A stretch of 64,000 nucleotides of DNA from a virus (taxonomy: Duplodnaviria; Caudoviricetes): the IMG/VR virus record IMGVR_UViG_3300028888_001628, positions 1 through 64,000 of that record, one strand, 5' to 3'. Made by a program: the position numbers and the translations under genes. Positions 1 through 46,790 of the stretch are shown one piece after another. Under the pieces are notes generated by a model. That model was not told the DNA's origin. It did not search any database and worked only from the letters and a program-made list of their open reading frames with translations. Within the stretch, counting starts at the first letter, position 1, and every line of letters starts with the position of its first letter.

Positions 1-287
1 CTGCTATGTTTAAAACAATTCCAGCGTGCTATCATTACAAAGAGCCTCGATTATATACCATGAGAGAGTGGTTAACCACAATGGGAATGCCATACGATTT
101 TATTATGTATGGCGATGTTAAAAACTATTTTTATAAAATTGGTCAGAATGTTCCAGCTAGAACAGCTGAATTCATTATTAGTGAAGCTGTAAATGTAATA
201 GAAAATTGGGATTCAGTCGATCGTATTGTAGATAAGAAAAATGTACTATTTGACAATATTAAACAAAAAATTACTTCATTAAGTTAG
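1..287 (+). CDS. C5-cytosine DNA methyltransferase, C-terminal part (5' truncated)
   Basis: RLYTMREW..MGMPYDF and KIGQNVP resemble motifs IX and X of C5 MTases. Confidence 0.75.
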   Translation, partial: AMFKTIPACYHYKEPRLYTMREWLTTMGMPYDFIMYGDVKNYFYKIGQNVPARTAEFIISEAVNVIENWDSVDRIVDKKNVLFDNIKQKITSLS

Positions 288-309
288 TTAAATAGTTTAC
301 TTTAGAATA

Positions 310-339
310 AACCGTAGTTATTATAACTACGGTTATTTT
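310..339 (+). terminator. Intrinsic terminator-like hairpin
   Basis: AACCGTAGTTA/TAACTACGGTT inverted repeat followed by T-rich tail. Confidence 0.6.
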
Positions 340-361
340 ATGACTTAGTCAGAGGGATCAT

Positions 362-763
362 ATGAATACTTATAAGCGATTGATCGTTGATTTAGACAAT
401 ACAATTTCATTTACAATAAATGGTGATTATATAAACAGCAAACCTATTAAGCCAACTATTGATTTGCTTAAAAGATATCACGATGATGGCTGGGAAATTG
501 TAATAAATTCATCTAGAAATATGAGAACATATGATTGCAATGTTGGTAAAATAAATATATACACATTACCAAATATTGTAAATTGGTTAAATAAATATGA
601 AGTCCCTTATGATGAAATAATAGTAGGAAAGCCGTGGTGTGGCTATGATGGGTTTTACATAGACGATAAAGCTATTAGACCATCTGAATTTCATAGCATG
701 AATCTAGATGAAATTAATGATCTTCTTGAAAAAGAAAGATCTTATATAGAGAGTGTAGTATGA
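362..763 (+). CDS. HAD phosphatase, BcbF/EcbF capsule-biosynthesis type
   Basis: DLDNT motif I, SSRNMRTY, VPYDEIIVGKPWCG..FYIDDKAIRPSEF. Confidence 0.85.
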   Translation: MNTYKRLIVDLDNTISFTINGDYINSKPIKPTIDLLKRYHDDGWEIVINSSRNMRTYDCNVGKINIYTLPNIVNWLNKYEVPYDEIIVGKPWCGYDGFYIDDKAIRPSEFHSMNLDEINDLLEKERSYIESVV

Positions 764-2298
764 TCTTAATTACATCAGCCAGTTACGTAAATTATGGGTT
801 AGCTTCAGAGTTTGGCAATATTCCGCCATGTATGTTGCCAGTCCAAAATAGACGATTATATGAACATCAGTATAATTTAATAGAGCGCTTACAAGATAAA
901 TTAGATAGAAGAGAAAAAGTTTATCTGTCATTACCAGCAGATTATGAAATACCTTACTTTGATGAATTAAACTTTTATCGGCTTGGTATTAACATAATTA
1001 AGATTAGCAGCAAGCTGTCATTACTTTCATCTATTATTGAAGCTTTAGAGTACGCTGATGACACAGAAACTGTTCGTATATTATTCGGTGATACTTTGTT
1101 TGCTGAACTCCCTACTGACTTAGATGTGTACCTTTATGATGATAGTAACGATGATTACAAATGGGATTACTTAGATTCAAACAACGTTTACTCCGGTTAC
1201 TTTGCATTTTCAAATGTTAAAGAACTTCGATCATCTTTGAATTACATACATCATAATGATAATAGTGATAATTTTACTAATGTTATTAGTAAATATAAAC
1301 TTAATGGTCTTAAAGCTTTAGGTTGGTTGGATTTCGGCCTACAGAATACTTATTACCGCTCAACCTCAAAATTCACAACGCAACGTTCATTCAATTCACT
1401 ATACATAAAGAGATTTTCAGTTAAAAAATGCAGTAAAGATCTCAAGAAGATGCAGGCTGAGTATAATTGGTTCACTAATATACCAACTGATATGAAGCAT
1501 TATATTCCAGCAGTATTAAACACGTGTGAAAACGGTTATGAGATTGAGTACTTTTATTTAAGTTCATTGTCCAATATGTATGTGTATGGTGAGAGCTCAT
1601 TTCATACATGGGTTAACATTATTAATGCTTGCTGTGAGTATCTTACGTCTGAATATTCACATTCTGGAGATGAGTCAGTAGCTCATACAAATAACAAGTT
1701 ATTTACTGAAAAGACAAAAAACCGTATTGATAAGTATGCTAGTGATACAGGGTTTGATTTAAATAAACCAATTAAGATAAACAACATCACTGTACCATCT
1801 GTAAATGACATTATAAATGAACTAGATAGCTATATAGAAAAAGATTCTGTTCGTTATTCATCTATTATGCACGGAGATTTTTGCTTTAGTAATACTTTAT
1901 ATGATTTTAAATCGCAATCCGTTAAAGTAATTGATCCACGAGGTATATCAGCAGATGGAAAAGAAATTACGATATATGGTGATTTACGGTACGATGTTGC
2001 CAAACTTGCACATTCAATTATAGGTAAATATGACTTTATAATTGCGGGTAGGTTTGATTACAAAGAAGCTTCACCGTACGATATAACATTTAATGTTTAT
2101 TGCAATAAAAACTGCAGAATTTATAAATACTTTTTAGATCGTATGCTTTCATTATATAATATATCTGCAAATACTATTTACTCTATTATGATAAATCTAT
2201 TTCTTTCTATGCTACCATTGCACAGTGATGATAGATTACGTCAGAAAGCACTTTTCGTGAATGCGTTAAAACTTTATTTGGAGTATAAATCTTTATGA
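760..2298 (+). CDS. Nucleotidyltransferase-like domain fused to APH/kinase-fold domain (BcbG-like)
   Basis: N-term EFGNIPPCMLP, FGDTL, WLDFG; C-term HGDFCFSN and IDPRG kinase motifs. Confidence 0.75.
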   Translation: MILITSASYVNYGLASEFGNIPPCMLPVQNRRLYEHQYNLIERLQDKLDRREKVYLSLPADYEIPYFDELNFYRLGINIIKISSKLSLLSSIIEALEYADDTETVRILFGDTLFAELPTDLDVYLYDDSNDDYKWDYLDSNNVYSGYFAFSNVKELRSSLNYIHHNDNSDNFTNVISKYKLNGLKALGWLDFGLQNTYYRSTSKFTTQRSFNSLYIKRFSVKKCSKDLKKMQAEYNWFTNIPTDMKHYIPAVLNTCENGYEIEYFYLSSLSNMYVYGESSFHTWVNIINACCEYLTSEYSHSGDESVAHTNNKLFTEKTKNRIDKYASDTGFDLNKPIKINNITVPSVNDIINELDSYIEKDSVRYSSIMHGDFCFSNTLYDFKSQSVKVIDPRGISADGKEITIYGDLRYDVAKLAHSIIGKYDFIIAGRFDYKEASPYDITFNVYCNKNCRIYKYFLDRMLSLYNISANTIYSIMINLFLSMLPLHSDDRLRQKALFVNALKLYLEYKSL

Positions 2299-3038
2299 GA
2301 AAGCTACACGTTATAATGCCTATGGCAGGAGAAGGCTCTCGTTTTAAACAAGTTGGTATCGATACACCAAAACCTTTAATAAAAGCAAATGGTGTTCCAT
2401 TCTTTGTTAGAGCGCTGTCATCTATAAAAGATTCATTTGATGATTTAAAAGTTACGTGTATAATTCAATCAAAACATGATACAGATCATTGTTTAAGTAA
2501 TGGTATTAAAAGTGAGTTTCCATTTGCAAATATAGTAGTGTTACCAAAATTAACAAATGGTGCAGTTGAGACTTGTTTAGCTGCTAAGCCTTTTATGTGT
2601 AAAGACGATGCTATTCTTATTATGGATTGTGATCTAGAGTGGAAGTCTAATAAATATATATTAGCTATAAAAAGCCTTCTTAGAAGTGATTCTAGTACTA
2701 TTGGTGGGCTGCTACTTTCGTTTGATTCAGATAAACCAAGATATAGTTATGCTAAGGCTGACAAAGATAATGTTGTTATAGAAACTGCTGAGAAATCTGT
2801 AATATCAAATAATGCACTAGTTGGCGCATATTACTTTAATACTGTAGATGATTTTATCTTATCTTCAGATAAGCTAGTAACTAAAAATAAATTATCAGAT
2901 ATTAAAGAATACTATATTTCATTATTATATAATTATTTAATTCAGAATGGGCGCACAGTTATATTATATAAAGTCGACACTCTACACTCATTCGGTACAC
3001 CAGAGGAACTTAGCGAGTATGAACATTCTTTTAATTAA
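2295..3038 (+). CDS. Sugar nucleotidyltransferase (BcbE-like)
   Basis: MPMAGEGSRF..PKPLI, GAVET, DCD, EYYIS, FGTPEEL. Confidence 0.85.
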   Translation: MRKLHVIMPMAGEGSRFKQVGIDTPKPLIKANGVPFFVRALSSIKDSFDDLKVTCIIQSKHDTDHCLSNGIKSEFPFANIVVLPKLTNGAVETCLAAKPFMCKDDAILIMDCDLEWKSNKYILAIKSLLRSDSSTIGGLLLSFDSDKPRYSYAKADKDNVVIETAEKSVISNNALVGAYYFNTVDDFILSSDKLVTKNKLSDIKEYYISLLYNYLIQNGRTVILYKVDTLHSFGTPEELSEYEHSFN

Positions 3039-4197
3039 AACTGACACTATAAGATTTAAAGAATGCCAATCAAAAGAAATAACATTTGGAGGTGTTGATT
3101 TAGCAGCTTTATTTTTTGGCTCGTTAGTAAAACTTTATCAAGAACATACGTTTTATTTAGTTGGATCAAATGATATTTCTATAGCTAATATGCCAAAAAA
3201 TCTCGTCTCTTTAGAAGAGCCTATTAAAAATAAATCGAAAGAGTCAGGTAAAGTAAAATATAAAGCTGGAATAGATTACTGTAATGAAAATAATATTTCA
3301 TTCGATAAAGCTCTTATTTGGTACGGCCCATCGCTTGCTATAGTTCAATATGATGACAACTATCTTACGATGAAAGGAACTGTAAGAAGACCTTTACAGT
3401 CACAAACAAGATACAGTGATGGCTTAGCTATGGCTACGCAAATGCACGTTCCAACTTACTATATATTAAATGACGCTAGACAGCTTGGGTGTTTACCACT
3501 TGATGTTGATGATCCAAAGATGGTAATTTCACAGATGAACGGTGTGATTCATAATAAAGCTTATTTACCAAATAGTAAGTCTGATTTGTTTATTAGGGAT
3601 ATAGATGTAACATACAAACCGATAGAATTTTTATGGCTTGCTTCTAAAAATAAAATTGATTGGCGTAACTTTAAAAAAGATAATAAGTTTATTATAGTAT
3701 GCAATGGTATGCCATACAGATATAAATACATAAAAGAATGGATTTTAAAATATCTTCCAAATGAGGTTATTTACGGTAAATGGACTAGTCCAAAATTTAT
3801 TTGGGAAGCAATTGAGCGCGATGGTTATACAGATAACTTTAAATTTAAGCCAATGGTAACCATGGAAGATAAAATGTTTTCCACAAGATATACTTTGGTA
3901 ATTCCACTAGAAAAAGAATACCCATCATTTGTTACACAAAAAGCAATATCTATGGTTTACTATGGAATTATTCCATTCTGGTGTATATATGATTATGATA
4001 GTGACAATTTATATAAAGACTTTCCTGACTACATTAAGGTAAGATCTCCTGAAGAGTTTTACGCTAAAATGGATGAGTTAGATTCAAATGAAGAATTATA
4101 CACTGAGATTAAGAATCAGTTATATGATTTATTGTTAGACAAGTACTTTACAATTGACTTTGTAAAAGAAATATTCGATGATGTTATTTCAGACTAA
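3019..4197 (+). CDS. GT-B glycosyltransferase, T4 beta-glucosyltransferase-like (putative DNA glycosyltransferase)
   Basis: ILNDARQL resembles BGT LFTDIRL; FVTQK...YDSD resembles BGT FITLR...FDTK; adjacent to dCMP-modifying enzyme; start moved to ATG 3019. Confidence 0.6.
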   Translation: MNILLIKTDTIRFKECQSKEITFGGVDLAALFFGSLVKLYQEHTFYLVGSNDISIANMPKNLVSLEEPIKNKSKESGKVKYKAGIDYCNENNISFDKALIWYGPSLAIVQYDDNYLTMKGTVRRPLQSQTRYSDGLAMATQMHVPTYYILNDARQLGCLPLDVDDPKMVISQMNGVIHNKAYLPNSKSDLFIRDIDVTYKPIEFLWLASKNKIDWRNFKKDNKFIIVCNGMPYRYKYIKEWILKYLPNEVIYGKWTSPKFIWEAIERDGYTDNFKFKPMVTMEDKMFSTRYTLVIPLEKEYPSFVTQKAISMVYYGIIPFWCIYDYDSDNLYKDFPDYIKVRSPEEFYAKMDELDSNEELYTEIKNQLYDLLLDKYFTIDFVKEIFDDVISD

Positions 4198-4241
4198 ATA
4201 GCTTGTATATTATAATAAACTAACTAATCTGGAGTAACACT

Positions 4242-4934
4242 ATGAATAGTATTAAAACAACCGAAGACATTAGAAAAGAGCTTGTTAGTCTGTATAGCGA
4301 TAAGTGTTTTCGTACAGGCAAATATGGAATGACTGTAGAAATTCAAAATGTGCATTTTCTTGCTGATAAAGACTGGATTATTCGCAAACCAAATTATGAT
4401 TATGCAAAAAGAGAGATTCAATGGTATGAGTCACAGTCTCTGTATGTCAAAGATATTCCTGGTGATGTACCAAAGATTTGGCAAATGTGTGCTGATAAAG
4501 ATGGGAAGATAAATTCTAACTATGGATGGTGCATTTGGTCTGAAGAAAACGGTAGTCAGTTTAAACACTGTGTAGAAAGATTATTAGATGATCATTGTAC
4601 TCGTGAAGCATGTATGATTTACAATAGACCTTCTATGCAAGTTGATTGTAACAAGAACGATATGCATGATTTCATGTGTACATTCTCTACTCAACATTTT
4701 TTAAATGAAATTGATGAGAATAAATTTAGATTAGATTACACAGTTTTTCAGAGAAGCTGCGATGCGTGCTTTGGGTATAATAACGATAAACTCTGGCATG
4801 ATTACGTTCAATCTTATTTATTAGAAGCTCTACGGTCAAAAGGTCTTAACGTTAAATCAGGAAATATGATTTACAACTGTGGATCACTTCATGTTTACGA
4901 ACGACATTTTAAACATTTACAGTTAATAGATTAA
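4242..4934 (+). CDS. dCMP hydroxymethylase-like thymidylate synthase homolog (T4 gp42 family)
   Basis: INSNYG, DFMCT catalytic Cys, RSCDACFGYNND with Asp at the dCMP-specificity position, SLHVYERHF. Confidence 0.85.
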   Translation: MNSIKTTEDIRKELVSLYSDKCFRTGKYGMTVEIQNVHFLADKDWIIRKPNYDYAKREIQWYESQSLYVKDIPGDVPKIWQMCADKDGKINSNYGWCIWSEENGSQFKHCVERLLDDHCTREACMIYNRPSMQVDCNKNDMHDFMCTFSTQHFLNEIDENKFRLDYTVFQRSCDACFGYNNDKLWHDYVQSYLLEALRSKGLNVKSGNMIYNCGSLHVYERHFKHLQLID

Positions 4935-4942
4935 TTTACTTT

Positions 4943-4977
4943 AAATCACCAGAAAAAAATTTTTTCTGGTGATTTTT
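4943..4977 (+). terminator. Intrinsic terminator
   Basis: AAATCACCAGAAAAA/TTTTTCTGGTGATTT plus T tail. Confidence 0.7.
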
Positions 4978-4978
4978 G

Positions 4979-5007
4979 TTTACATATGAAATAGAAAGTT
5001 TTATAGT
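4979..5007 (+). promoter_or_regulatory. Sigma70-like promoter of second sugar module
   Basis: TTTACA-17 nt-TATAGT. Confidence 0.6.
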
Positions 5008-5052
5008 TATATTTGTAAGTTGGGATTACCTATTTTATTGAGAGGTAAGCAA

Positions 5053-5955
5053 ATGATTTCACAAAATAATCTTGGAATTAATCTTGGTTTTGCGAATAAT
5101 CGTTTTCCAGAACCAGAAGTATGGACTGACATAGTTGCTAATAAGCTTGACTTACATAAAGTTCAGTTTGTAGCTGACATTCTTAATCCAACTCTAAAGC
5201 TATACAATAAAGATTACTATGACAGTCAGATAAATAAAACTGTTGAATGTATAGCTAAACACAGCATTAGTGTTACTTCTATAATGACTTCATCATTTAC
5301 TAGAGTAAATCATTTCGCTCATCCGGATAAAGAATACAAAGATGCCTGGTTAGCATGGTTTAATGATTTTCTTGACATGGGTAAAAAGCTTGGGGCTAAA
5401 TCGGCTGGATCTCATTTTGGTATTTTAACAGTTGAGTCTTTGGTTAATAAAGATAAGTTATACAAAGATGCTATACATTATTGGGCTGAACTATCTATTA
5501 TAGCAAGAGATTTAAATTACGACTTTCTTTTCTTTGAACCAATGTCTGTTGATAGAGAATTTGGTAATACTATTGAGAAGACAGAACAAATACTAAGTGA
5601 TTTAAATGAAGTATCAGCTATTCCATTTAAGATTTGTTTAGATGTCGGTCATGCGCCTCATCCATCTCAAAGAGACTATAAAGAGTGGATGAAAAGATTA
5701 GCTAAAGACAGTCCAATAATTCATTTACAACAGACTACTTTAAATAATTCAAATCACTCTCCTTTCACATCTATCTACAACACTAATGGAATTATAGATC
5801 CGTATTGGATTATTAATTTACTAAATGAATCTGGACTATCTCCAGAATTGGATTTTGAGATTGGCTTTAGAGAAAAAGAAGAAATTGAGCATACAGTAAT
5901 AAATGACTTAGTTGAATCGGCTAACTATTGGAAACAGTGCATAGGTGGAAACTAA
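5053..5955 (+). CDS. Xylose-isomerase-like TIM-barrel sugar-phosphate epimerase (EryC-like)
   Basis: GINLGFANNRFPEP, EPM, LDVGH, IHLQQ metal ligands; ATG 5053 follows GAGG. Confidence 0.7.
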   Translation: MISQNNLGINLGFANNRFPEPEVWTDIVANKLDLHKVQFVADILNPTLKLYNKDYYDSQINKTVECIAKHSISVTSIMTSSFTRVNHFAHPDKEYKDAWLAWFNDFLDMGKKLGAKSAGSHFGILTVESLVNKDKLYKDAIHYWAELSIIARDLNYDFLFFEPMSVDREFGNTIEKTEQILSDLNEVSAIPFKICLDVGHAPHPSQRDYKEWMKRLAKDSPIIHLQQTTLNNSNHSPFTSIYNTNGIIDPYWIINLLNESGLSPELDFEIGFREKEEIEHTVINDLVESANYWKQCIGGN

Positions 5956-5956
5956 T

Positions 5957-6910
5957 ATGAAAGCAATTCAAATTGAAAAAGATTTTAATAATTCATCTAT
6001 TGTTGATTTAGATGAACCCACTGTAGAAGAAAATCAATTGTTATTAAACGTAAAAGCAGTAGGCATCTGTCAATCAGATATTGCTAGAGTATTTAATCAA
6101 TCTGCATATTATTATCCTATTATACTAGGACATGAGTTCTCTGGCATAGTTAATGGAAATAAATCAACAGTGTTTCCTATTATACCATGTAGAAAGTGTG
6201 CTGAATGTAGTTTGGGAAATTATGCACAGTGTTCTAATTATTCGTACTATGGCTCTAGACAAAGTGGTGGGATGCAGGAACGAATAGCCGTTAGAAAATG
6301 GAATATCATAAGTGATGATAAACTTTCTTGCGAAGAATTAGCTCTTATAGAACCAAGTGCAGTTGCTATGAATGCTATTCGTTTCATTGATAAATACTGT
6401 AGATCCGTTTTAATAAATGGATGTGGTTTTATCGCTTTAGTAGCTGCGCAAATACTTACACATGTTGGTAAAACAGTGTATATTAGAAATAGAAATCAGG
6501 AGAAGTTAAAGTTTGCAGTTAAGAACTTTGATTTAATTGAATATAAAGATCAGCCATTTGACTGTGCTATTGATTTTGTTTCTAACTCTGCGTCAATGAA
6601 TTTCTTAATTGAAAAAGTAAAATCGCATGGTTCAATCATAGCGGTAGGAAATCCTTCAAATGAAGTAACTTTTGATAAAGCTAATTATTCAAAAGTTTTG
6701 CGAAAAGAACTAAACATTCGTGGGATTTGGAATTCACATCGTGAAGATTGGCTTGATGTTATTAAACTTATTAGTGATCGTAGTATTGATGTGAATAAAC
6801 TAATTACACATAAATACGATTATACTGATTTTAAGAAAGCATTTGAGAAAATAAGAGATAATCAAACAAATTACAACGAGCTGATTATTAAGAGTGTTAT
6901 TTTATTTTAA
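5957..6910 (+). CDS. Zn-dependent polyol(-phosphate) dehydrogenase, GatD-like
   Basis: GICQSD, LGHEFSG, CxxCxxC(x7)C, EPSAV. Confidence 0.85.
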   Translation: MKAIQIEKDFNNSSIVDLDEPTVEENQLLLNVKAVGICQSDIARVFNQSAYYYPIILGHEFSGIVNGNKSTVFPIIPCRKCAECSLGNYAQCSNYSYYGSRQSGGMQERIAVRKWNIISDDKLSCEELALIEPSAVAMNAIRFIDKYCRSVLINGCGFIALVAAQILTHVGKTVYIRNRNQEKLKFAVKNFDLIEYKDQPFDCAIDFVSNSASMNFLIEKVKSHGSIIAVGNPSNEVTFDKANYSKVLRKELNIRGIWNSHREDWLDVIKLISDRSIDVNKLITHKYDYTDFKKAFEKIRDNQTNYNELIIKSVILF

Positions 6911-6933
6911 CCACTATCTATATAGGTGTAAGA

Positions 6934-7956
6934 ATGATTCAGGCTGTATTAAAAGAACTCGGTAAGATTGAACTAAAGCGCGTTTCTCGTAAAAAGCTTA
7001 AGCCAGGTGAGATACGACTTAAGGTTATTTCGTGTGCTATATGCGGATCAGATATTCGTATTTATAATTACGGTAATTCTAGAGTAAATTTACCGCACGT
7101 GATAGGTCATGAAGTAGTAGGTAAGATAATTGAAGTACCTGATGATTGTAATCTTACTGTTGGTGATTATTGCTGCTTTGGAGCAGATCTTCCATGTGGT
7201 GACTCTAATTGTAAATATTGTAAAGCTGGTGACTTTGGATCATGTGATAAAAATTTAGCAATTGGTTACCAATTTGATGGTGGATTTGCTGAAGAAATGA
7301 TTATTCCAAAAGTATGTTATAGCTATGGAGCTGCTTTTGGAGTTATACCAGTAGTAGGCAGTGATGTATATAAATACTCATTGGTTGAGCCTTTAGCATG
7401 TGCTATTCATGGAGTTGAGCCAATGAATATTAAAACATCAGATGATGTTTTAATATTTGGTGGTGGACCAATTGGATTAATGATTGGTGATATATGTTTA
7501 AATTTAGAAAAGTGTAATTCTGTTACTATTGTGGAATTATCACCAGCTAGAGTAGATCTAATTCATAAGCTGTTTCCAAAGTTTAATGTTACAAGTGATT
7601 ATAAAACACTCGATAAAGAGTTTGATGTAATATTTACAGCTAATTCAGCGTCAGATTGTCATAGAATAGCTGTTGATATGGCTGCTAAAAATGCACGTAT
7701 AAATTACTTTGGTGGATTAGGCATTAAAGAGCTTGTACCTATTGACACTAATAAAATTCATTATAAACAGTTAATGATTACTGGAACACACGGTTCACGA
7801 AAATGCGACTTTGATAAAGCTTATACATGCGTTAAGTCGAATTGGTTAGACATGAACAAATATATTACATCGGTGTTTTCTTTAAAAGACATCAATAAAG
7901 CCTTTGATGCTGCTAAAGACTTATGTAACCTTAAGATTATTATAAAGGGTGAGTAG
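6934..7956 (+). CDS. Zn-dependent polyol dehydrogenase, iditol/sorbitol DH-like
   Basis: ICGSD, GHEVVG, structural Zn cysteines, EPLAC, GGGPIG. Confidence 0.85.
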   Translation: MIQAVLKELGKIELKRVSRKKLKPGEIRLKVISCAICGSDIRIYNYGNSRVNLPHVIGHEVVGKIIEVPDDCNLTVGDYCCFGADLPCGDSNCKYCKAGDFGSCDKNLAIGYQFDGGFAEEMIIPKVCYSYGAAFGVIPVVGSDVYKYSLVEPLACAIHGVEPMNIKTSDDVLIFGGGPIGLMIGDICLNLEKCNSVTIVELSPARVDLIHKLFPKFNVTSDYKTLDKEFDVIFTANSASDCHRIAVDMAAKNARINYFGGLGIKELVPIDTNKIHYKQLMITGTHGSRKCDFDKAYTCVKSNWLDMNKYITSVFSLKDINKAFDAAKDLCNLKIIIKGE

Positions 7957-7958
7957 CT

Positions 7959-8594
7959 ATGTTTTCAAGTTCTATAATGTGTGTAAATCAGCTTGAATTA
8001 AAAAGCTATATAGATTTGTTTAATAAATATAAATTTGGAATGATTCACATTGACATTATGGACGGTAAATTTGTAAATAATATAATGTACGGTCCATACA
8101 TTATTAATGATCTTAGAAAGTATACAGATTTAAAATTTGACATTCACCTAATGATAGATAAACCAGAATATAAATTAGGTATGTTTAATTTTAATAGTAA
8201 TGATAGAGTGGCTATTCATTACGAATCTACAAAGAATTTAATGCAGACTATCTTAATGTATAAAGAAAAAGTGGGTGAGTTGTTTATTGCAATAAATCCA
8301 GCTACTCCAGTGTTTTTACTTGAAGAAGTTATTGGTATTATTGATGGCATATTAGTTATGTGCGTAAATCCAGGGTTTGCTTCACAGGATATGATTTTTA
8401 ATATACCAAACAAGATTAAGAATATTCATAAATTATATCCTGAATTAAAGATTGAAGTAGATGGTCATATTACGCCTGATTATTACTATCAATTCAAAGA
8501 TATGGGCGTAGAAGATTTTGTATTAGGGACTTCATTTATTTTTAAGAATGGTTTAATTGGGACTGAATCTATTATAAAAGGGTTATCTGTATAA
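7959..8594 (+). CDS. Ketose-phosphate 3-epimerase (Rpe/AlsE family)
   Basis: HIDIMDG, DIHLM, INPATP, VNPGF, EVDG; N-term SIMC resembles AlsE SLMC. Confidence 0.85.
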   Translation: MFSSSIMCVNQLELKSYIDLFNKYKFGMIHIDIMDGKFVNNIMYGPYIINDLRKYTDLKFDIHLMIDKPEYKLGMFNFNSNDRVAIHYESTKNLMQTILMYKEKVGELFIAINPATPVFLLEEVIGIIDGILVMCVNPGFASQDMIFNIPNKIKNIHKLYPELKIEVDGHITPDYYYQFKDMGVEDFVLGTSFIFKNGLIGTESIIKGLSV

Positions 8595-10150
8595 TGAGTG
8601 CGTACCAAGTAATTATTACATTAGGTGGGACTGGTAAACGATTTGCTGATGCGGGCTATGAGTTACCAAAGTATATGCTTCCTATTAGCATCTTTGATTC
8701 TAATTATAAGGTAATTGATTTAGTAACAAAGATGTATGAAGACAATGATACTGATATTTTATTTTTGTGTAATAAAGATCATATTGAAAAGTATAACCTA
8801 AAACAATTACTTGGTAAATATGGTACAGTGATACCAGTTGTACCTGGTAAAGGGCCAGGTGATGCTATATTGCAGGCTAAAAATTTTATCGATGTTAATA
8901 AACCAACGTTTGTACAGTATTGCGATACTTTTCAGCCATGGGATTTACAAAAGATTAAGAACTATATAGAAAAGTATAACCCAGATTCAGCAGTGGTTGT
9001 TACGAATGAGAAGTGTCCTTCTGTATATGACGGAACATTGTATGGAAGAGTAAAAATAAAAAATAATCTTATAAAAGATATTAAAGAAAAAGCTGAGCCA
9101 GAGTATTCAGACTATCTTGGCTGTGGTACATTTTACTTTAGAAGTGGTCTTGTATTACTTAAATATATTGAAATACAAGATAAAGATAAAGATAAGTATT
9201 ATTTAAACGGTGAGTCATATATTAATTGTACAATAAAGGCAATGCTAGATGATTGTCAAAATGTGATTCCTATAAATGTAACTGACTATCTAAATCTTGG
9301 TGTACCACGTGACTATGAAGAATATATGTATTGGCAAAGACTTGAGTGTAAGTATGCCAATAAAATTACTCATAAAGGACCAATACTCCAAGATTCTACC
9401 ATTATTATGCCTGCCGCTGGTTTAGGTTCAAGATTTAAAAATGTATATAATAAACCTAAGCCATTAATTGATGTTAATAATTCTCCGATGTACAAAGAGG
9501 CTATTAATCTATCTTTTAATCCGGAGAATGTTGTTATTGTTACTAGAAAGGATTTAGAATTTTATAAAGAATTCAAAGATTCTGCTGAAGGTAATGATTA
9601 CACTTTTATAGGTCTTGATTCTATAACTGATGGTCAAGCTATTACAGTTAAAGAGGGATTAAAAGAAATTACACATGGGCCTATTATTATAAATTCGTGT
9701 GATCAGGGAATTTTATATGATGAGGTTAGATTTAATAATATTTATGATTCATCAGATATTATAGTATGCGGTATTAAGAACTATCAACCAGCTTTACGAA
9801 AAGTGAATTCTTTTTCATGGATTAAATGTGATGGAGATAGTGTTATTGAAGTTACGTCAAAAAGATGTGACGGAGATCCAAAAGAAAGTTTAGCTTTTGT
9901 AAGCTGTTTATTGTATAAAAATAAACACATTTTAGAAGATAGTATAAATGCTCTTATTAAAAGAGGAGCTAAAACTAATGGTGAATATTATATAGATGAA
10001 TCCATAAATGATAGTATTTCACTTGGGTATAAAGTAAAAGTTCTTGAGATAGATGCTTATCTTAACTGGGGAACTCCAGAAGAATTAGAACTATATCAAT
10101 GGTGGAATCGATTTTTTACTAAAACAGGTTTGTATGATTATTTGGCATAG
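8594..10150 (+). CDS. Tandem two-domain sugar nucleotidyltransferase
   Basis: GGTGKRF..PKY...LGVPRDY and PAAGLGSRF..PKPLI...WGTPEEL. Confidence 0.85.
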   Translation: MSAYQVIITLGGTGKRFADAGYELPKYMLPISIFDSNYKVIDLVTKMYEDNDTDILFLCNKDHIEKYNLKQLLGKYGTVIPVVPGKGPGDAILQAKNFIDVNKPTFVQYCDTFQPWDLQKIKNYIEKYNPDSAVVVTNEKCPSVYDGTLYGRVKIKNNLIKDIKEKAEPEYSDYLGCGTFYFRSGLVLLKYIEIQDKDKDKYYLNGESYINCTIKAMLDDCQNVIPINVTDYLNLGVPRDYEEYMYWQRLECKYANKITHKGPILQDSTIIMPAAGLGSRFKNVYNKPKPLIDVNNSPMYKEAINLSFNPENVVIVTRKDLEFYKEFKDSAEGNDYTFIGLDSITDGQAITVKEGLKEITHGPIIINSCDQGILYDEVRFNNIYDSSDIIVCGIKNYQPALRKVNSFSWIKCDGDSVIEVTSKRCDGDPKESLAFVSCLLYKNKHILEDSINALIKRGAKTNGEYYIDESINDSISLGYKVKVLEIDAYLNWGTPEELELYQWWNRFFTKTGLYDYLA

Positions 10151-10694
10151 AGTAAATACTATCGATGAATTAAAAGAAATCCCACTTGATGATGGAGTTG
10201 AGATTGATATACGATCTATTAAAGGTAGACCATATTTATCACACTTCATTGATCAAGATGGGGTTCTGTTTGAAGAATGGATAAAATATTATCACCTTAA
10301 AGGTACGCTAGTACTAAATGTAAAAGAAGAGGGGCTAGAAAGCATTTTAATAGACATATTAAATAAATATCAAATAACAAATTATGTATTCTTAGATGAG
10401 CCTTTCTGGTACTTACTGAATGCTTCTAGAAAGCTAAATAACAAAAACTTTGCAATAAGAGTGTCTAAGTTTGAATCGGTTGATACTGCTATCAAATCAA
10501 GGAAGCTTTCTGATTGGGTATGGTACGACTACTTTGATGATTATGTATGTGTAGAAGATATTAAGAAACTCATAAATAATGGCTTTAAAGTTATAATGCC
10601 ATCATGTGAACTTGTAAATTCTAAAACAGATTTTACTAATACACTAGAAAGAAATAACGTTCATTTATGGGCTATTTGTAAAGATAGGAGCTAG
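10134..10694 (+). CDS. GDPD/PI-PLC-like phosphodiesterase
   Basis: HRVN, GVEIDIR, SH, LNVKEEG, RVSKFE. Confidence 0.7.
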   Translation: MIIWHRVNTIDELKEIPLDDGVEIDIRSIKGRPYLSHFIDQDGVLFEEWIKYYHLKGTLVLNVKEEGLESILIDILNKYQITNYVFLDEPFWYLLNASRKLNNKNFAIRVSKFESVDTAIKSRKLSDWVWYDYFDDYVCVEDIKKLINNGFKVIMPSCELVNSKTDFTNTLERNNVHLWAICKDRS

Positions 10695-10698
10695 TTAT

Positions 10699-11583
10699 AT
10701 GAAGTCAGCTGAAGCGGTATTTATGTTACATGGTGATGTTAATAGAAAGTCTACTCTATTAAATATTATAAATGATAATGCTTACATAGTAGTTTGGCCA
10801 GATACTTCTAAAGAAGATGCTGTAAAGAATTTAGTTGGCTATGATCCGGCTAAACATACAATTATTAATATTGGAAATAAAGATAAGCTGTATATTGGAA
10901 GAAATAACATTATAGATTATTGTAAAGAGCATGGTATTAAACGATTTTGGATGGTTGATGATGACGTTTTTGATTTTAGATTAGGTGGCCCATCACAAGA
11001 ATTTAAAGAAAAAGTACGTCAGAATGGTAAAACCACTTTGATGAATGTAGAGTTTGATGATGATGTAGGTTTGGGCGGGATGACAATGCGCGGTGTAATG
11101 TTCAACAAAGCTGTTGATAAACCGCAATTCGGTAAGAGATTTATATGGGCTGTAGTATTTATCGATTTAGATTATAATAATATACGTTATTCTGTTGAGG
11201 GATATGACGATATCGATATGCAGCTAGAATGTGTTAAAAATGGGATTAAAATTCAGACTGTAAATTGGTTAGGTCACGCAAAGCCACAGTGGACAGTTAA
11301 GAAATCACTCAACTCACAATTAGATAAAATAAACTATAATAACTATATCATTTATAAAAAGTGGGGTGATACAGTTAAGATTGATGTTTATTATGATAAA
11401 AATAAGACTAAATACTTTAGAGTGCATACAAAGTACCCATACAATATAAAAAGCACAGATACTACAATATTTGCGACAGACACACTTGAATCATTTGTTA
11501 AATCATTAGAAGATGCTTTTAATAGTCATCCAGAGTCTTTTCACGTGTGTGGCTTACCTCATTTAAAAAAGAAAGATACTTAG
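10699..11583 (+). CDS. GT-A glycosyltransferase of the TET/JBP-associated (GREB1-like) / T-even second glucosyltransferase type
   Basis: GRNNIIDY...FWMVDDD and DDIDMQL motifs. Confidence 0.65.
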   Translation: MKSAEAVFMLHGDVNRKSTLLNIINDNAYIVVWPDTSKEDAVKNLVGYDPAKHTIINIGNKDKLYIGRNNIIDYCKEHGIKRFWMVDDDVFDFRLGGPSQEFKEKVRQNGKTTLMNVEFDDDVGLGGMTMRGVMFNKAVDKPQFGKRFIWAVVFIDLDYNNIRYSVEGYDDIDMQLECVKNGIKIQTVNWLGHAKPQWTVKKSLNSQLDKINYNNYIIYKKWGDTVKIDVYYDKNKTKYFRVHTKYPYNIKSTDTTIFATDTLESFVKSLEDAFNSHPESFHVCGLPHLKKKDT

Positions 11584-11677
11584 TGTTTAATAAATTTAAT
11601 TATGATAAAAGCTATTACAATTATACTAATATTATTTGTAGCTTTACTGATAATTATTCTAAGTGGTTGAGGTTATT

Positions 11678-11956
11678 ATGAACAAATTATTTATTCTGAT
11701 TGCAGTATTGTTTGCACTTTTATTTGCAGTTAGTGCTAACGCGCAGCCAGTTGTATATTACCCGTATGACGTTTACGATTATATCTGCTATAAAGTAGCA
11801 CTTCCATACCCGCATACTAAATGTGAATATCGTAGAATTTATGATTACAGATATATTCCACCTCGTCATCATGTAAGACCATTACCTCCTCCGCCTCATA
11901 GGCATAGACATGGTCATCACCCACCGCCTCCGCCTAATAGAGGACATCATCGATAA
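11678..11956 (+). CDS. Small exported Pro/His/Arg-rich protein
   Basis: Signal peptide ending ANA; PPPPH repeats; GAGG before ATG 11678. Confidence 0.65.
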   Translation: MNKLFILIAVLFALLFAVSANAQPVVYYPYDVYDYICYKVALPYPHTKCEYRRIYDYRYIPPRHHVRPLPPPPHRHRHGHHPPPPPNRGHHR

Positions 11957-11960
11957 ATTT

Positions 11961-12054
11961 AAAGCCTATAGAAATTTCTATAGGCTTTTTCTATAATGTA
12001 TAGAGTTTTATAGATAAAATAAAAACCCATGAGGATTTGTTCTCATGGGTTTTT
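11961..12054. terminator. Two hairpins between convergent genes
   Basis: AAAGCCTATAGAA/TTCTATAGGCTTT and AAAAACCCATGAG/CTCATGGGTTTTT. Confidence 0.75.
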
Positions 12055-12066
12055 ATTAGCATTTAA

Positions 12067-13323
12067 TTAAAAAATTAGTGATCTTAAAAAGCTTTCTTTA
12101 AGTATTTCACATCCCTCTGGATTTTTCTCTGGGCGCCATTGCTCGATCACAGAGTGTGTTAATCGCAAACTTCTTGCTGAAACATTTTGTCCTTTAACAG
12201 TAGCAACCTTTCCATAATAATCAGGGTTAAGTTTTACAGATCCGTCATCAGCTATAATAGTAGCATCTTCTTTAATATAATCAGACACATTAGAGCAAGT
12301 TGCGATAGGATGTGTTACGATTGTACCGTCATCTTTTTCCATCTTAATAGAGAATACAAAACCAACAACCATATTAGCATTACGTGTATCATCATTACCA
12401 ACTACATAGTCAGTAACAAATGCGTCAATATCACTCGCAATGGAATCAGTTGTAGATCTTTTTACTTTTACACAATCAATAGTTCTTGAAGAAGTTGCAT
12501 GATAAACAGCATTTTTATTTTTAAGAACAATACCCTCACCATTGTTTGAGACAATACGATCATAAAAATCATGTTTTGCTTCTGGGTATTTATCTGTGTT
12601 TTCTACAACTGGGTTAATGTCACAACAGAATCCGCTTTTATTTAACATATTCGAAAGTTTTTTTGCATGATTGTGACGTACAGTCCATACTGAATCAATA
12701 AGTCTATCTTTATCATGCAGACAGTCAAACACGATAAATTTAAGTGGTGATCTCTTTTGTACTTCAATAGAATCAGCCGGGTTTAATGCTAATATTGCAG
12801 TTGTCGATTGCAGTTGTGTAAGACACCTAACGTTTGTTTCAGCTTCAGGGTCTGTACTAATAACTTCACAATCTAAAACGAAATTATATGCATAGTCAAA
12901 ATCTTTTGCAGTAACTAACACAGTGTCTGTATAATCCTGTGGAAGATAATCCTCAACTGAATTATTTCTACTATAGAAATGAAACTTTTTCTCTGAAGCA
13001 TCCCATACAATAAGCATCCTACAACCGTCGATCTTTTCTTCGGCAATCCAATCTTTTGAATCCCATACAAGCTTCTGTTGCTCTGGTTTAAGATCTTTAA
13101 TTCGTCTACATAATTGAGGTGTCTCTATTGATAGCATGAACTTTAAAGGCCATGGGATATTCTCAATAGACCCAAACTTTTCTTTAATAAAGTAATTACG
13201 AAGTGCAATTACGTAATCATCTTTCATTAGCTTTCGCCCAGCTGGTGTAACGGTGATACCTAATGAGTTACATTGATTCTGTAAATAATCAATTCTACGA
13301 CCACAAGAAATTGACATTAGCAA
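12067..13323 (-). CDS. ATP-dependent DNA ligase
   Basis: EEKIDGCR, LDCE, FD, EGIVLK, KVK, C-terminal OB domain. Confidence 0.92.
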   Translation of the reverse strand: MLMSISCGRRIDYLQNQCNSLGITVTPAGRKLMKDDYVIALRNYFIKEKFGSIENIPWPLKFMLSIETPQLCRRIKDLKPEQQKLVWDSKDWIAEEKIDGCRMLIVWDASEKKFHFYSRNNSVEDYLPQDYTDTVLVTAKDFDYAYNFVLDCEVISTDPEAETNVRCLTQLQSTTAILALNPADSIEVQKRSPLKFIVFDCLHDKDRLIDSVWTVRHNHAKKLSNMLNKSGFCCDINPVVENTDKYPEAKHDFYDRIVSNNGEGIVLKNKNAVYHATSSRTIDCVKVKRSTTDSIASDIDAFVTDYVVGNDDTRNANMVVGFVFSIKMEKDDGTIVTHPIATCSNVSDYIKEDATIIADDGSVKLNPDYYGKVATVKGQNVSARSLRLTHSVIEQWRPEKNPEGCEILKESFLRSLIF

Positions 13324-39980: not shown

Positions 39981-41462
39981 GTGATGCCAGCAAGATTAAA
40001 CTTAGACGAGCTCAAAAAAGAGTATATATGTAAGATTTTTGGATGGCTCACTGTACTTGATGTGATTAGAACAGACGCTGGTGCGTACCTTTTTAGATGC
40101 AAATGCAAGTGTGGCGCACTAAAAGATGTTGATAAAAAGCACGTTTTACATGGTAGCATAAAAAGCTGTGGTTGTTATCAAAAGTCTAAAGAAAAAGCCG
40201 ATAAGTATTCTAAATGGTGTAAAGAAAATCCTGATAAGGTAAAGGCAAAAGCAGAAAAAGCAAAAGAATACTTTAAAGAACACCCTGATCAACTTATAGA
40301 GCAAGGTAAATCTCATTCTGAGTGGATAAAAAGTAATGACAGTGAAAGATATAGACTTGCTAATTGGCATAAAGAAAATTCAGAGCTGTCTGCAAAAGCT
40401 TCCGCAAAAAGATCTCAGTGGAGTAAGGATCATCCAGACCTTCAAAAGAAAATAAATGAAAAAGTATCAAAGGCTATTACAGATGATGAAAGAAAGTCGC
40501 GCAGTGAAAGAAGACGTAGATTTTATATAGAGCGGCCTGATGATGCCGCTGAAATGAATAAACGTATAAGTGAAACTGTAAAACAGTTTTGGAAAGACAA
40601 CCCTGACGTAATGGCTAACATTACACAAAAGAGAGCTTTGCTGCTAAAAGAAAACCCAGAAATAATAGCAGGAATATCAGAGTCTGTTAAACAAGCATTT
40701 GCTAAAAAACGGTCAGAAATAGACTTTAGCGGCATCATTGACATTATACATCCTGATTATGTTAGCGATTTACTAAGTGGAAACATAAAATGCGATAGTA
40801 AAGTAATGACGAAATGCCCTAGGTGTAATAATTATGAAACACATCCATTTGGTGCAATATTTAGTCTCAGACAATCTGCTATAAGAAGTGAATTACTATG
40901 TAAAAAATGTGCGTACTCAATTACATCGTCTAAAGCTGAAGGTGAGATAGCTGAATATATTTCATCATTCTACAAAGGTGATTGTGTAAGAAACATACGT
41001 AGCATTATACCACCGCAGGAACTTGACTTATATTATCCTGAAAAGAAAATTGCTATTGAGTTCAATGGTGATTATTGGCATGATGAAAATCATAAACCTA
41101 AAGACTATCACTATAACAAGTTCAAAGCGTGTTTAGAAAAAGGAATCTTACTAGTTTCAATTTTTGAACATGATTGGAACACAAGAAAAGATGTCATTAA
41201 ACAGTACTTAATAGACTTATTTAATGGTACAGAAAACTGTCTATCATTTGTAAATGAAAAATATGTAAATAATAACTATCCACTGCCAAATATGTGTGAT
41301 AAATCATTATTAAGTGTCATTAGCAATAGCTATATTTATGATAAAGATGACGTAAAAGTATTCACATGTGGCTATTCTGAAGTTGGTGATAAACAATGGG
41401 AATTATTTAAAGAAAAAATAAAGTCATACAAAGACAGCGTGATTAAAGTAACAATAGTGTAA
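39981..41462 (+). mobile_element. Free-standing homing endonuclease-like gene (helical repeats, Zn finger, PD-(D/E)xK/Vsr-like nuclease)
   Basis: CKCKCG..KSCGC, WxKENP repeats, CPRC..CKKC, ELDLY..IAIEFNGDYWH. Confidence 0.8.
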
Positions 41463-46293: not shown

Positions 46294-46358
46294 ATTAGTT
46301 TACATCCCATGTAGTTTATTGTATAAATATTACGTAAACTAACATGGGGTTTTATTTT

Positions 46359-46790
46359 ATGAAGTTCACTAAACAGCAGATGAAATTTTTTGAAAAAGCT
46401 GCAGAGATTGCATCTTATTCTGATTTTACAAAACAGCACTTGGGTTGTGTTGCGGTTATTAAAAATAAGATAGTAGCTGCTGCACATAACAAATTAAAGA
46501 CACACCCTATTCAGAAAAGATACGATGAATTTAGAAAATTTAACTGTGTTAGTGATACTCAGAATATGCACAGTCTTCACGCTGAAATAGCGTGTATAAA
46601 TTCTTTAAAGGACGTTAATATCAATTATAAAGATTTGGAATTGTACATTGTGCGTCTTAGGAAAGACAGAGATTATGGTCTTGCAAGACCATGCGCAGCT
46701 TGCATGAAATTTATTCAAAGCAAGGGGATTAGAAGAATTTTCTATAGTACGAATACAGGTTTTGCTTTTGAAGAACTTTCGAAAGCTTAA
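46359..46790 (+). CDS. Cytidine/dCMP deaminase-fold protein
   Basis: HAE...PCAAC. Confidence 0.85.
   Translation: MKFTKQQMKFFEKAAEIASYSDFTKQHLGCVAVIKNKIVAAAHNKLKTHPIQKRYDEFRKFNCVSDTQNMHSLHAEIACINSLKDVNINYKDLELYIVRLRKDRDYGLARPCAACMKFIQSKGIRRIFYSTNTGFAFEELSKA

Follow-up and report, generated by a model that had tools for sequence, protein, structure and literature searches.

The window analysed here, a stretch of 64,000 nucleotides, comprises the first 64 kb of a 155,974-base linear IMG/VR virus record (IMGVR_UViG_3300028888_001628) and opens with a cluster of 13 open reading frames that run head to tail on the plus strand between positions 3 and 11583. We read this cluster, with a probability of roughly 0.7, as a cytosine hypermodification pathway in which 5-hydroxymethylcytosine (5hmC) is made before replication and is decorated after replication by two glycosyltransferases, one resembling T4 beta-glucosyltransferase (BGT) and the other of the TAGT family, using two donors that the phage makes itself. 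The phage DNA probably carries a cytosine decoration that has not yet been described. The analysis shows the gene content, folds, family memberships, active-site signatures and block-wise conservation; DNA as the acceptor, the identities of the donors, the order of transfer and the role of a GDPD-like enzyme are inferred.

Glycosylated cytosines are among the strongest shields that phages have against restriction enzymes and CRISPR, and they are in turn targets of type IV restriction. Known donors are host UDP-glucose (T-even phages), phage-made UDP-arabinofuranose (RB69 and DLP3) and galactose plus glucose (RL38J1). The 5hmC adduct predicted here would draw on two phage-made donors, neither of which resembles the known ones: the source of one is a capsule cassette with a link to fructofuranose, and that of the other a polyol-phosphate cassette accompanied by a phosphodiesterase.

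In the proposed route, a gp42-type enzyme would turn dCMP into 5-hydroxymethyl-dCMP (5hm-dCMP) before replication, and a Tmk-like kinase and a dUTPase-fold enzyme, whose genes closely precede the window, would assist the entry of 5hm-dCMP into DNA. After replication, two soluble transferases, a BGT-like GT-B enzyme and a TAGT-family GT-A enzyme, would decorate 5hmC in the DNA. Each transferase gene comes after what would be its own donor-synthesis module, with module 1 feeding the GT-B enzyme and module 2 the TAGT enzyme. The module 1 kinase would phosphorylate the anomeric position of a sugar that already bears a terminal phosphate, a HAD phosphatase would take off that terminal phosphate, and a nucleotidyltransferase (NTase) would then make a nucleoside diphosphate (NDP)-furanose. 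Module 2 would start from ketose phosphates of the pentose phosphate pathway, which Rpe-family and EryC-like epimerases and two polyol-phosphate-type dehydrogenases would convert before a double NTase activates the product. The genes and boundary elements are as follows.

3–287, plus strand: C-terminal 94 amino acids of a divergent C5 cytosine DNA methyltransferase (435 amino acids in full; PF00145), cut by the start of the contig
310–334, plus strand: terminator-like hairpin with an 11-pair stem, between the methyltransferase gene and module 1
362–763, plus strand: HAD-type sugar-phosphate phosphatase of the EcbF/BcbF subfamily (TIGR01689), analogue of AfhF and RB69 gp51
760–2298, plus strand: predicted bifunctional protein of 512 amino acids with an NTase-like N-terminal domain and an APH/choline-kinase-like sugar kinase, AfhE-like in architecture (phrog_24015, E 1.3e-102)
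2295–3038, plus strand: single-domain NTase of 247 amino acids (phrog_3980, E 3.9e-50)
3019–4197, plus strand: GT-B glycosyltransferase closest in fold to T4 BGT (structural match), predicted first DNA transferase
4242–4934, plus strand: gp42-type dCMP hydroxymethylase, predicted 5hm-dCMP synthase (phmmer and T6 gp42 alignment)
4943–5007, plus strand: 15-pair terminator-like hairpin followed by a promoter-like TTTACA-17-TATAGT, at the boundary between module 1 with the hydroxymethylase gene and module 2
5020–5955, plus strand: EryC-like sugar-phosphate epimerase/isomerase with a xylose-isomerase-like TIM barrel (PF01261, E 1.7e-13)
5945–6910, plus strand: Zn-dependent dehydrogenase, galactitol-1-phosphate 5-dehydrogenase-like (4a2c, E 5e-36)
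6934–7956, plus strand: second Zn-dependent dehydrogenase, nearest to threonine and polyol dehydrogenases
7959–8594, plus strand: ribulose-phosphate 3-epimerase (Rpe) family enzyme (PF00834, E 8.5e-44)
8594–10150, plus strand: fused double NTase (PF00483 at residues 7–215, PF12804 at residues 274–371)
10134–10694, plus strand: minimal GDPD-fold phosphodiesterase of 186 amino acids (AlphaFold2 model and Foldseek)
10699–11583, plus strand: GT-A glycosyltransferase of the TAGT family (PF20691), 294 amino acids, predicted second DNA transferase

An initial annotation had placed 13 co-oriented genes at these positions, and each of its functional labels was verified or refined. Its view of the extent of the cluster was right for these genes and fell short at the 5′ end, where the start of the contig cuts the cluster. 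A JGI contig from the same phage (L007), 100% identical to the window across 2,034 bases, reaches 9.6 kb further upstream. Ahead of the methyltransferase gene it encodes a thymidylate-kinase-like nucleotide kinase (phrog_761), a 121-amino-acid protein, a dUTPase-fold protein, a 173-amino-acid protein and an EcoRI-methylase-like protein. Because this contig adds the kinase, the dUTPase-fold protein and a complete C5 methyltransferase, the cluster is larger than the interval first marked out. A Tmk-like kinase is also present in the hypermodification clusters of RB69, DLP3 and RL38J1 (PMC13326640).

Evidence for the modified base comes from the thymidylate synthase (TS) homologue, whose first description as a dCMP-type enzyme is borne out and which is of the hydroxymethylase kind. 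The protein matches T4 gp42 crystal structures, including 1b49 (phmmer E 7.5e-57), is 44% identical to T6 gp42 and has no significant similarity to RB69 gp48 (BLAST E 0.06). Its motifs DFMCT and QRSCDACFGYNND align with T6 gp42 and carry the hallmarks of gp42-type enzymes, namely the catalytic Cys in an xFMCT context, Asp at the position of ThyA N177 (N177D; dCMP specificity) and an acidic residue at ThyA L143 (L143D), with D169 kept. In RB69 and many other phages the homologue yields 5-hydroxy-dCMP; Asn at E. coli ThyA position 169 (D169N) has been proposed as diagnostic of this activity and is found in all tested 5-hydroxy-dCMP synthases (PMC13326640). When the window protein, its relatives, T6 gp42 and RB69 gp48 are aligned, this position is Asp in the window protein (QRSCD), as in gp42, and Asn in RB69 gp48 (MRSQN), so the window protein lacks the Asn169 of the gp48 type. 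The retained Asp169, the Asp residues at N177 and L143 and the insignificant similarity to gp48 together point to 5hm-dCMP as the predicted product and to 5hmC, rather than the 5-hydroxycytosine of RB69, as the predicted base.

Both transferases resemble enzymes of the T-even phages, as first proposed. The GT-B protein has the two-Rossmann-domain fold of its class and is predicted to act on 5hmC in duplex DNA; T4 BGT is the structure that it matches best, leading other GT-B enzymes by 3 Z units. A search of IMG/VR for loci related to this GT-B confirmed none. The GT-A protein scores 44.5 bits against PF20691 (TAGT; cut-off 27.5), the Pfam family that also holds the second-sugar enzyme of T6 (37.2 bits), whose gene lies directly beside gene 42, and it matches phrog_842, annotated as beta-glucosyl-HMC-alpha-glucosyltransferase (E 1.7e-10). 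It has the acidic DxD-type motif WMxDD of TAGT enzymes after a beta-strand, in the form WMLDDD, of which W84, M85, D87, D88 and D89 are invariant in 19 homologues and which aligns with QRIWMIDD of T6. None of 14 control cellular genomes passed the TAGT cut-off. A predicted base-hydroxymethylating enzyme is encoded in the neighbourhood, the TS homologue lying 5.8 kb upstream of the TAGT gene.

How the two transferases divide their work is less clear-cut. The cluster had initially been taken to stack two unusual sugars on modified cytosine; the hydroxymethylase, the two transferases and their own donor modules have held up, and stacked products, or products that are sugars at all, are possibilities only. 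The two transferases of T4 act in parallel, and module 2 may make a polyol-phosphate donor. Both the alpha- and the beta-glucosyltransferase of T4 take 5hmC as their substrate (PMC13390438), and, in a metaviromic study, TAGT-type GT-A enzymes of phages with methyltransferase and TET genes attach their sugars straight to 5hmC (bioRxiv 10.1101/2023.12.21.572611). In addition, each module is a transcription unit of its own and can be exchanged independently in relatives. We see a substantial chance, though one well short of even, that each transferase places its own donor on different 5hmC residues, giving a mixture of two mono-adducts and no stacked disaccharide. Set against such a mixture, the only characterised TS-associated TAGT member, the beta-glucosyl-HMC-alpha-glucosyltransferase of T2/T6, adds a second glucose to the first (PMC13390438), and RB69 and DLP3 stack sugars by successive transferases (PMC13326640).

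Module 1 (362–3038) consists of the HAD phosphatase, the NTase-kinase and the single-domain NTase. The phosphatase exceeds the NCBIfam cut-off of TIGR01689, a model named after BcbF (E 2e-59, 199.1 bits against 162), and it is 32% identical to RB69 gp51 (E 1e-12), as would suit the phosphatase partner of an AfhE/AfhF route. In the NTase-kinase, residues 216–489 share 25% identity with the RB69 gp52 kinase (E 5e-12) and the HGDxxxxN...D kinase motif is intact and invariant (HGDFCFSN...IDPRG); residues 1–215 are NTase-like by language-model features alone (score 0.91). The single-domain NTase falls just under the 21.2-bit cut-off of PF00483 (20.8 bits, E 3.2e-4). In RB69, DLP3 and HY126, AfhE and AfhF phosphorylate arabinose-5-phosphate at C1, strip the 5-phosphate and make UDP-arabinofuranose (PMC13326640). 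The arabinose-5-phosphate isomerase (SIS) of that route has no match in the 156-kb record, which is only 68% complete, making this and the other family absences weak evidence; a SIS gene is present in a related phage (L004).

The trio has relatives in bacteria. A scan of one genome per prokaryotic species returned 228 relatives of the 512-amino-acid NTase-kinase, and 75 of the 80 best loci flank it with the HAD phosphatase and the 247-amino-acid NTase in the order seen in the phage. The closest trios are those of Bacteroidota, with the HAD 66–69% and the kinase 42–45% identical, and others occur in Campylobacter, Helicobacter, Vibrio, Phenylobacterium and further genera. The trio is the only conserved unit of these loci: its neighbours are variable lipopolysaccharide (LPS) or capsule genes (WavE, GT2, GT4, GT9 and epimerases), and none of the 80 loci contains a homologue of the phage GT-B. 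Overall, module 1 is a cassette for donor synthesis that was taken up from a surface-glycan locus of bacteria, and it most likely yields an NDP-furanose, with a ketofuranose or pentofuranose as the expected sugar. In the type B capsule of Pasteurella multocida, the fructose side chain is attributed to BcbE, BcbF and BcbG; BcbE and BcbG were shown to be required, and the role of bcbF was predicted only, no mutant having been obtained (PMC13552107). By this indirect link through the Pasteurella Bcb genes, fructofuranose is the best single guess for the sugar, with a chance of about one in three.

Module 2 (5020–10694) begins with four enzymes whose recognisable relatives all act on phosphorylated ketoses or polyols. 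The EryC-like protein matches 4k3z, the Brucella EryC tetrulose-4-phosphate racemase deposited under an older name (E 1.5e-45), and the first dehydrogenase matches NF007642 at E 4.8e-43, below the equivalog cut-off. A Clostridia metagenome-assembled genome (L011) carries the same four genes in the same order (49, 34, 36 and 37% identity), and one from Treponema (L012:8001-11090) carries the TIM-barrel gene and both dehydrogenase genes at 50, 34 and 37% identity, without Rpe. The Clostridia cassette (L011:8001-12717) comprises the EryC-like TIM barrel, the two Zn-dehydrogenases, a URO-D-like protein and Rpe, and sits beside sulfatases and glycoside hydrolases. By sequence comparison, the TIM barrel, dehydrogenase, dehydrogenase and Rpe series is a second captured bacterial cassette.

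For the remaining two enzymes of module 2, the double NTase and the 186-amino-acid protein, searches of PDB sequences were empty, as they were for the NTase-kinase of module 1. Full-length homologues of the double NTase occur in a bacterium (L014; 28% identity, E 7e-63) and in cyanophages S-SM2 and Bellamy. The 186-amino-acid protein has no Pfam hit, PF03009 included, and belongs to a family without a Pfam model; an exhaustive search found 612 relatives of about 200 amino acids (about 600 cluster representatives, including P0197-P0346 and L014:2561-3160). Its AlphaFold2 model is a small TIM barrel (pLDDT 95.7), and the top 10 Foldseek matches are all GDPDs (TMq 0.67–0.71, with values of up to 0.77 lower in the ranking); the teichoic-acid hydrolase GlpQ is among the best matches. 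H5, R6, N8, E23, D25 and H37 are invariant in 56 sequences, and H5, R6, E23, D25 and H37 form the His-Arg...Glu-x-Asp...His pattern, whose equivalence to the GDPD residues is suggested by motif order. Longer relatives carry an additional IspD-like NTase, GT2, GT61 or inositol monophosphatase domain, and members of this mini-GDPD family frequently lie next to, or are fused with, IspD-like NTases and GT-A glycosyltransferases. On the bacterial contig L014 (62% G+C), the double-NTase homologue, a GT2 gene (GT-A) and the GDPD-like gene lie side by side, so the combination of a double NTase, a GDPD-like protein and a GT-A enzyme is itself a recurring unit.

Module 2 may yield a rare NDP-sugar; alternatively, it may yield an NDP-polyol, with transfer of the polyol phosphate as in teichoic acids. 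CDP-alditol synthesis for teichoic acids and capsules (TarI/TarJ, Bcs1, AbpA/AbpB) uses a dehydrogenase and a cytidylyltransferase acting on ketopentose 5-phosphates. Module 2 has dehydrogenases of the medium-chain dehydrogenase/reductase (MDR) type, one of them nearest to GatD; an IspD match was seen at E 0.008 only, and no direct match to TarJ or TarI was obtained. We hold as a tentative idea, with odds clearly against it, that ribulose- or xylulose-5-phosphate is reduced and then joined to a nucleotide, making an NDP-activated pentitol or polyol whose polyol phosphate is linked by a phosphodiester bond to either the first sugar or 5hmC. Just as tentatively, and jointly with that idea, the GDPD-fold enzyme might serve as a phosphotransferase or a trimming enzyme. 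Were this so, the phage DNA would carry a teichoic-acid-like, negatively charged glycosyl-polyol-phosphate side chain, a chemical class not yet described for DNA.

Related phages show how these genes travel. A 220-kb contig (L003) has all of the cluster genes at 63–95% identity in the order module 2, TAGT, methyltransferase, module 1, GT-B and TS homologue. On a 222-kb contig (L004), the NTase-kinase, NTase, GT-B (44% identical) and TS homologue are kept and the HAD of the trio is missing; module 2 and the TAGT gene are replaced by an arabinose-type module, consisting of SIS, Rpe, an NTase/APH kinase, a HAD-like protein and a second GT-B. Reduced versions of the cluster are present on a third contig (L005) and in Pseudoalteromonas phage XG4. 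The modules thus behave as blocks that can be exchanged and yet remain linked to the TS, kinase and methyltransferase genes; of the contextual arguments for a role of both modules in DNA modification, this linkage is the strongest. The initial proposal of two donor modules is upheld: each has bacterial counterparts of its own, each has moved as a block in related phages, and a hairpin and promoter-like site lie between them.

The reduced version on the 264-kb contig L005 (L005:6479-12892) has the kinase, HAD, NTase and GT-B beside a dCMP deaminase, a nucleoside deoxyribosyltransferase, an HD hydrolase and ThyX, with no gp42-type enzyme; this arrangement hints at glycosylation of another base, for example 5-hydroxymethyluracil.

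These origins and rearrangements also bear on whether DNA is the target at all. One or both modules could instead be auxiliary genes that remodel a host surface glycan or glycosylate virion proteins: the donor cassettes derive from bacterial LPS or capsule loci, double-NTase homologues sit in sugar clusters of S-SM2 and Bellamy that hold no TS homologue, and GDPD-like relatives are fused to GT2 and GT61 domains. We consider such a target unlikely. The GT-B is nearest to T4 BGT and has no counterpart in the bacterial trio loci, the TAGT family is one of DNA modification with no control genome above its cut-off, and both modules stay beside the TS homologue, methyltransferase and kinase genes in relatives despite rearrangement. 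As initially claimed, the cluster contains no polymerase, flippase or membrane protein, and none of its 13 proteins has a convincing membrane segment. Capsule synthesis by the phage is rejected, since membrane and export proteins are absent and both transferases are of DNA-modifying kinds. The S-SM2 cluster (L097, 147116-162651) holds, besides the double NTase, a Zn-dehydrogenase, a transketolase-like protein, a class II aldolase, HAD-like 'phosphoheptose isomerases' and several glycosyltransferases.

The C5 methyltransferase raises a different question, that of how 5hmC is made. Its 94-amino-acid fragment in the window matches PF00145 at E 1.4e-3, below the cut-off; the fragment (3–287) is 100% identical to L007:9642-9923, and the complete 435-amino-acid protein (L007:8619-9926) matches at E 1.4e-16. 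The motifs PVC, ENA, QKRPR and QNV are present, and the S-adenosylmethionine motif I is atypical (LTGGAYFG). The gene is embedded in the hypermodification cluster of every relative, once in L003 (L003:5940-7217) and twice in L004 (3727-5031 and 11206-12477). This recurrence, the naming of TAGT after its link with TET and six metagenomic contigs reported to have both ThyS and a dioxygenase (bioRxiv 10.1101/2023.12.21.572611) would fit a second route, in which the 5hmC used by TAGT is made after replication from 5-methylcytosine by the C5 methyltransferase together with a TET-type dioxygenase whose gene would lie in the third of the genome that is missing, with the TS homologue serving the GT-B only. 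Such a route is improbable: a Tet_JBP match is found neither in the 156 kb of the record nor in the 21-kb neighbourhoods of L003 and L004, and the T-even TAGT members work without TET.

Least probable is an arabinosyl-5-hydroxycytosine system of the RB69/DLP3 type, a reading rejected on the D169 signature: the HAD and kinase are homologous to RB69 gp51 and gp52 and Mosigvirus 'UDP-arabinose' genes are among the tblastn hits, but the TS homologue keeps Asp169 without significant similarity to RB69 gp48, the record has no SIS/arabinose-5-phosphate isomerase and the HAD belongs to the BcbF subfamily.

Several observations count against the pathway as we propose it, in which 5hmC is made before replication and decorated after it. 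If 5hmC replaces all cytosine, the C5 methyltransferase has no obvious substrate, and no recognisable MazG-type dCTPase is encoded in the 156-kb record. The GT-B matches no Pfam family at E <= 0.01 and hence none of the BGT/AGT families. Direct comparison of the TAGT alignment with the T6 enzyme by hhalign covers only 15 columns around the DDD motif with a probability of 6%, so the link to T6 rests on shared Pfam and PHROG membership. No known pathway of DNA glycosylation includes a GDPD-fold enzyme, and the cyanophage clusters with double-NTase homologues but no TS homologue belong to the same list.

The phage itself is known from metagenomes only. The record, estimated to be 68% complete and of about 31% G+C, encodes a large terminase and a portal protein; the terminase is at most 29% identical to that of any cultured phage, and DNA-level searches against cultured phages in both near and distant modes gave no match. 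The source is an uncultured tailed phage, probably a jumbo phage. ThyX and dUTPase were not found in the 156-kb record, a dUTPase-fold gene sitting upstream of the contig start. Two genes of the dCMP/cytidine deaminase family (PF00383, 45 and 85 bits) lie at 46344–46790 of the window and at G000:C1:138447-139034; by analogy with T4 cd, both could supply dUMP. Directly 3′ of the TAGT gene, an open reading frame of 97 amino acids (11663–11956) with a strongly hydrophobic N terminus and no family match may encode a membrane or secreted protein unrelated to the cluster. An ATP-dependent DNA ligase gene (12067–13323, minus strand) runs towards the cluster, with a 16-pair terminator-like hairpin (12018–12057) at its end. 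HNH/homing-endonuclease genes are present at 39981–41462 of the window and at L004:2604-3743; the cluster of L004 is interrupted by a NUMOD3 endonuclease gene that separates its Tmk-like kinase and methyltransferase genes.

Collectively, the cluster and its relatives reveal an assembly route in which ready-made bacterial cassettes are attached to DNA-specific transferases and swapped blockwise between related jumbo phages. They also suggest a testable function for three uncharacterised bacterial units, namely the HAD/NTase-kinase/NTase trio, the TIM barrel, dehydrogenase, dehydrogenase and Rpe cassette, and the mini-GDPD family. If the chemistry is confirmed, the enzymes of the cluster could be used as tools for labelling 5hmC.

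Among known systems, the glucosylation of 5hmC in T-even phages is similar in its gp42-type hydroxymethylase, in T4 BGT as the nearest relative of the GT-B and in a TAGT GT-A enzyme, as in T6. T-even phages, however, use host UDP-glucose and encode no donor synthesis, whereas the phage described here has nine donor-pathway genes, is unrelated to them by terminase and DNA, and has a C5 methyltransferase embedded in its cluster. The arabinosyl-5-hydroxycytosine systems of RB69, DLP3 and HY126 (5-hydroxy-dCMP synthase, arabinose-5-phosphate isomerase, AfhE kinase/pyrophosphorylase, AfhF phosphatase and GT-B arabinosyltransferases; PMC13326640) share a phage-made NDP-sugar produced by a kinase, a HAD and an NTase, a Tmk-like kinase, GT-B enzymes and homology of the HAD and kinase. 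They differ in the base, predicted here to be 5hmC rather than 5-hydroxycytosine, and in their isomerase, which was not found in the record. The phage described here has a BcbF-type bacterial trio that includes an additional NTase, and besides it a second module of unrelated type and a GT-A enzyme.

The same trio occurs in LPS and capsule loci, and the BcbE/F/G genes of Pasteurella type B and E capsules offer a further parallel, with the HAD in TIGR01689 and the gene order kept in 75 of 80 loci. In bacterial trio loci, locus-specific transferases (WavE, GT2, GT4 and GT9) put the product on polysaccharide, whereas in the phage the trio stands with a BGT-like enzyme and a dCMP hydroxymethylase. 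CDP-alditol synthesis is a possible parallel, in that Zn-dependent MDR dehydrogenases, NTases and an Rpe-family enzyme stand together in module 2; its known two-enzyme schemes are exceeded by the two dehydrogenases, two epimerases and GDPD-fold protein of the phage. The metaviromic clusters of Pyle et al. (bioRxiv 10.1101/2023.12.21.572611) have GT-A or GT-B genes beside ThyS or methyltransferase/5mYOX genes, with methyltransferases, epimerases, APH-type kinases and secondary glycosyltransferases nearby. That study catalogues clusters of glycosyltransferase and ThyS genes with extra sugar enzymes in bulk and describes tests with the E. coli metabolite pool only (giving hexose, N-acetylhexosamine and heptose); the part of it consulted does not describe a polyol-phosphate cassette, a double NTase or a GDPD-like enzyme.

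The combination, at first not recognised from any characterised phage, is thus less unprecedented than it seemed: in arabinosyl-5-hydroxycytosine phages, a kinase, a phosphatase and an NTase are now known to follow the logic seen in module 1 (PMC13326640). ThyS-dependent 5hmC with GT-B and TAGT enzymes (T-even), phage-made NDP-furanose (RB69 and DLP3) and diverse glycosyltransferase clusters of metaviromes (bioRxiv 10.1101/2023.12.21.572611) were already known. New are the combination of a BcbF-type trio with predicted 5hmC, the placing of a polyol-phosphate cassette, a double NTase and a GDPD-fold enzyme ahead of a TAGT gene, and the block-wise exchange of modules between related phages.

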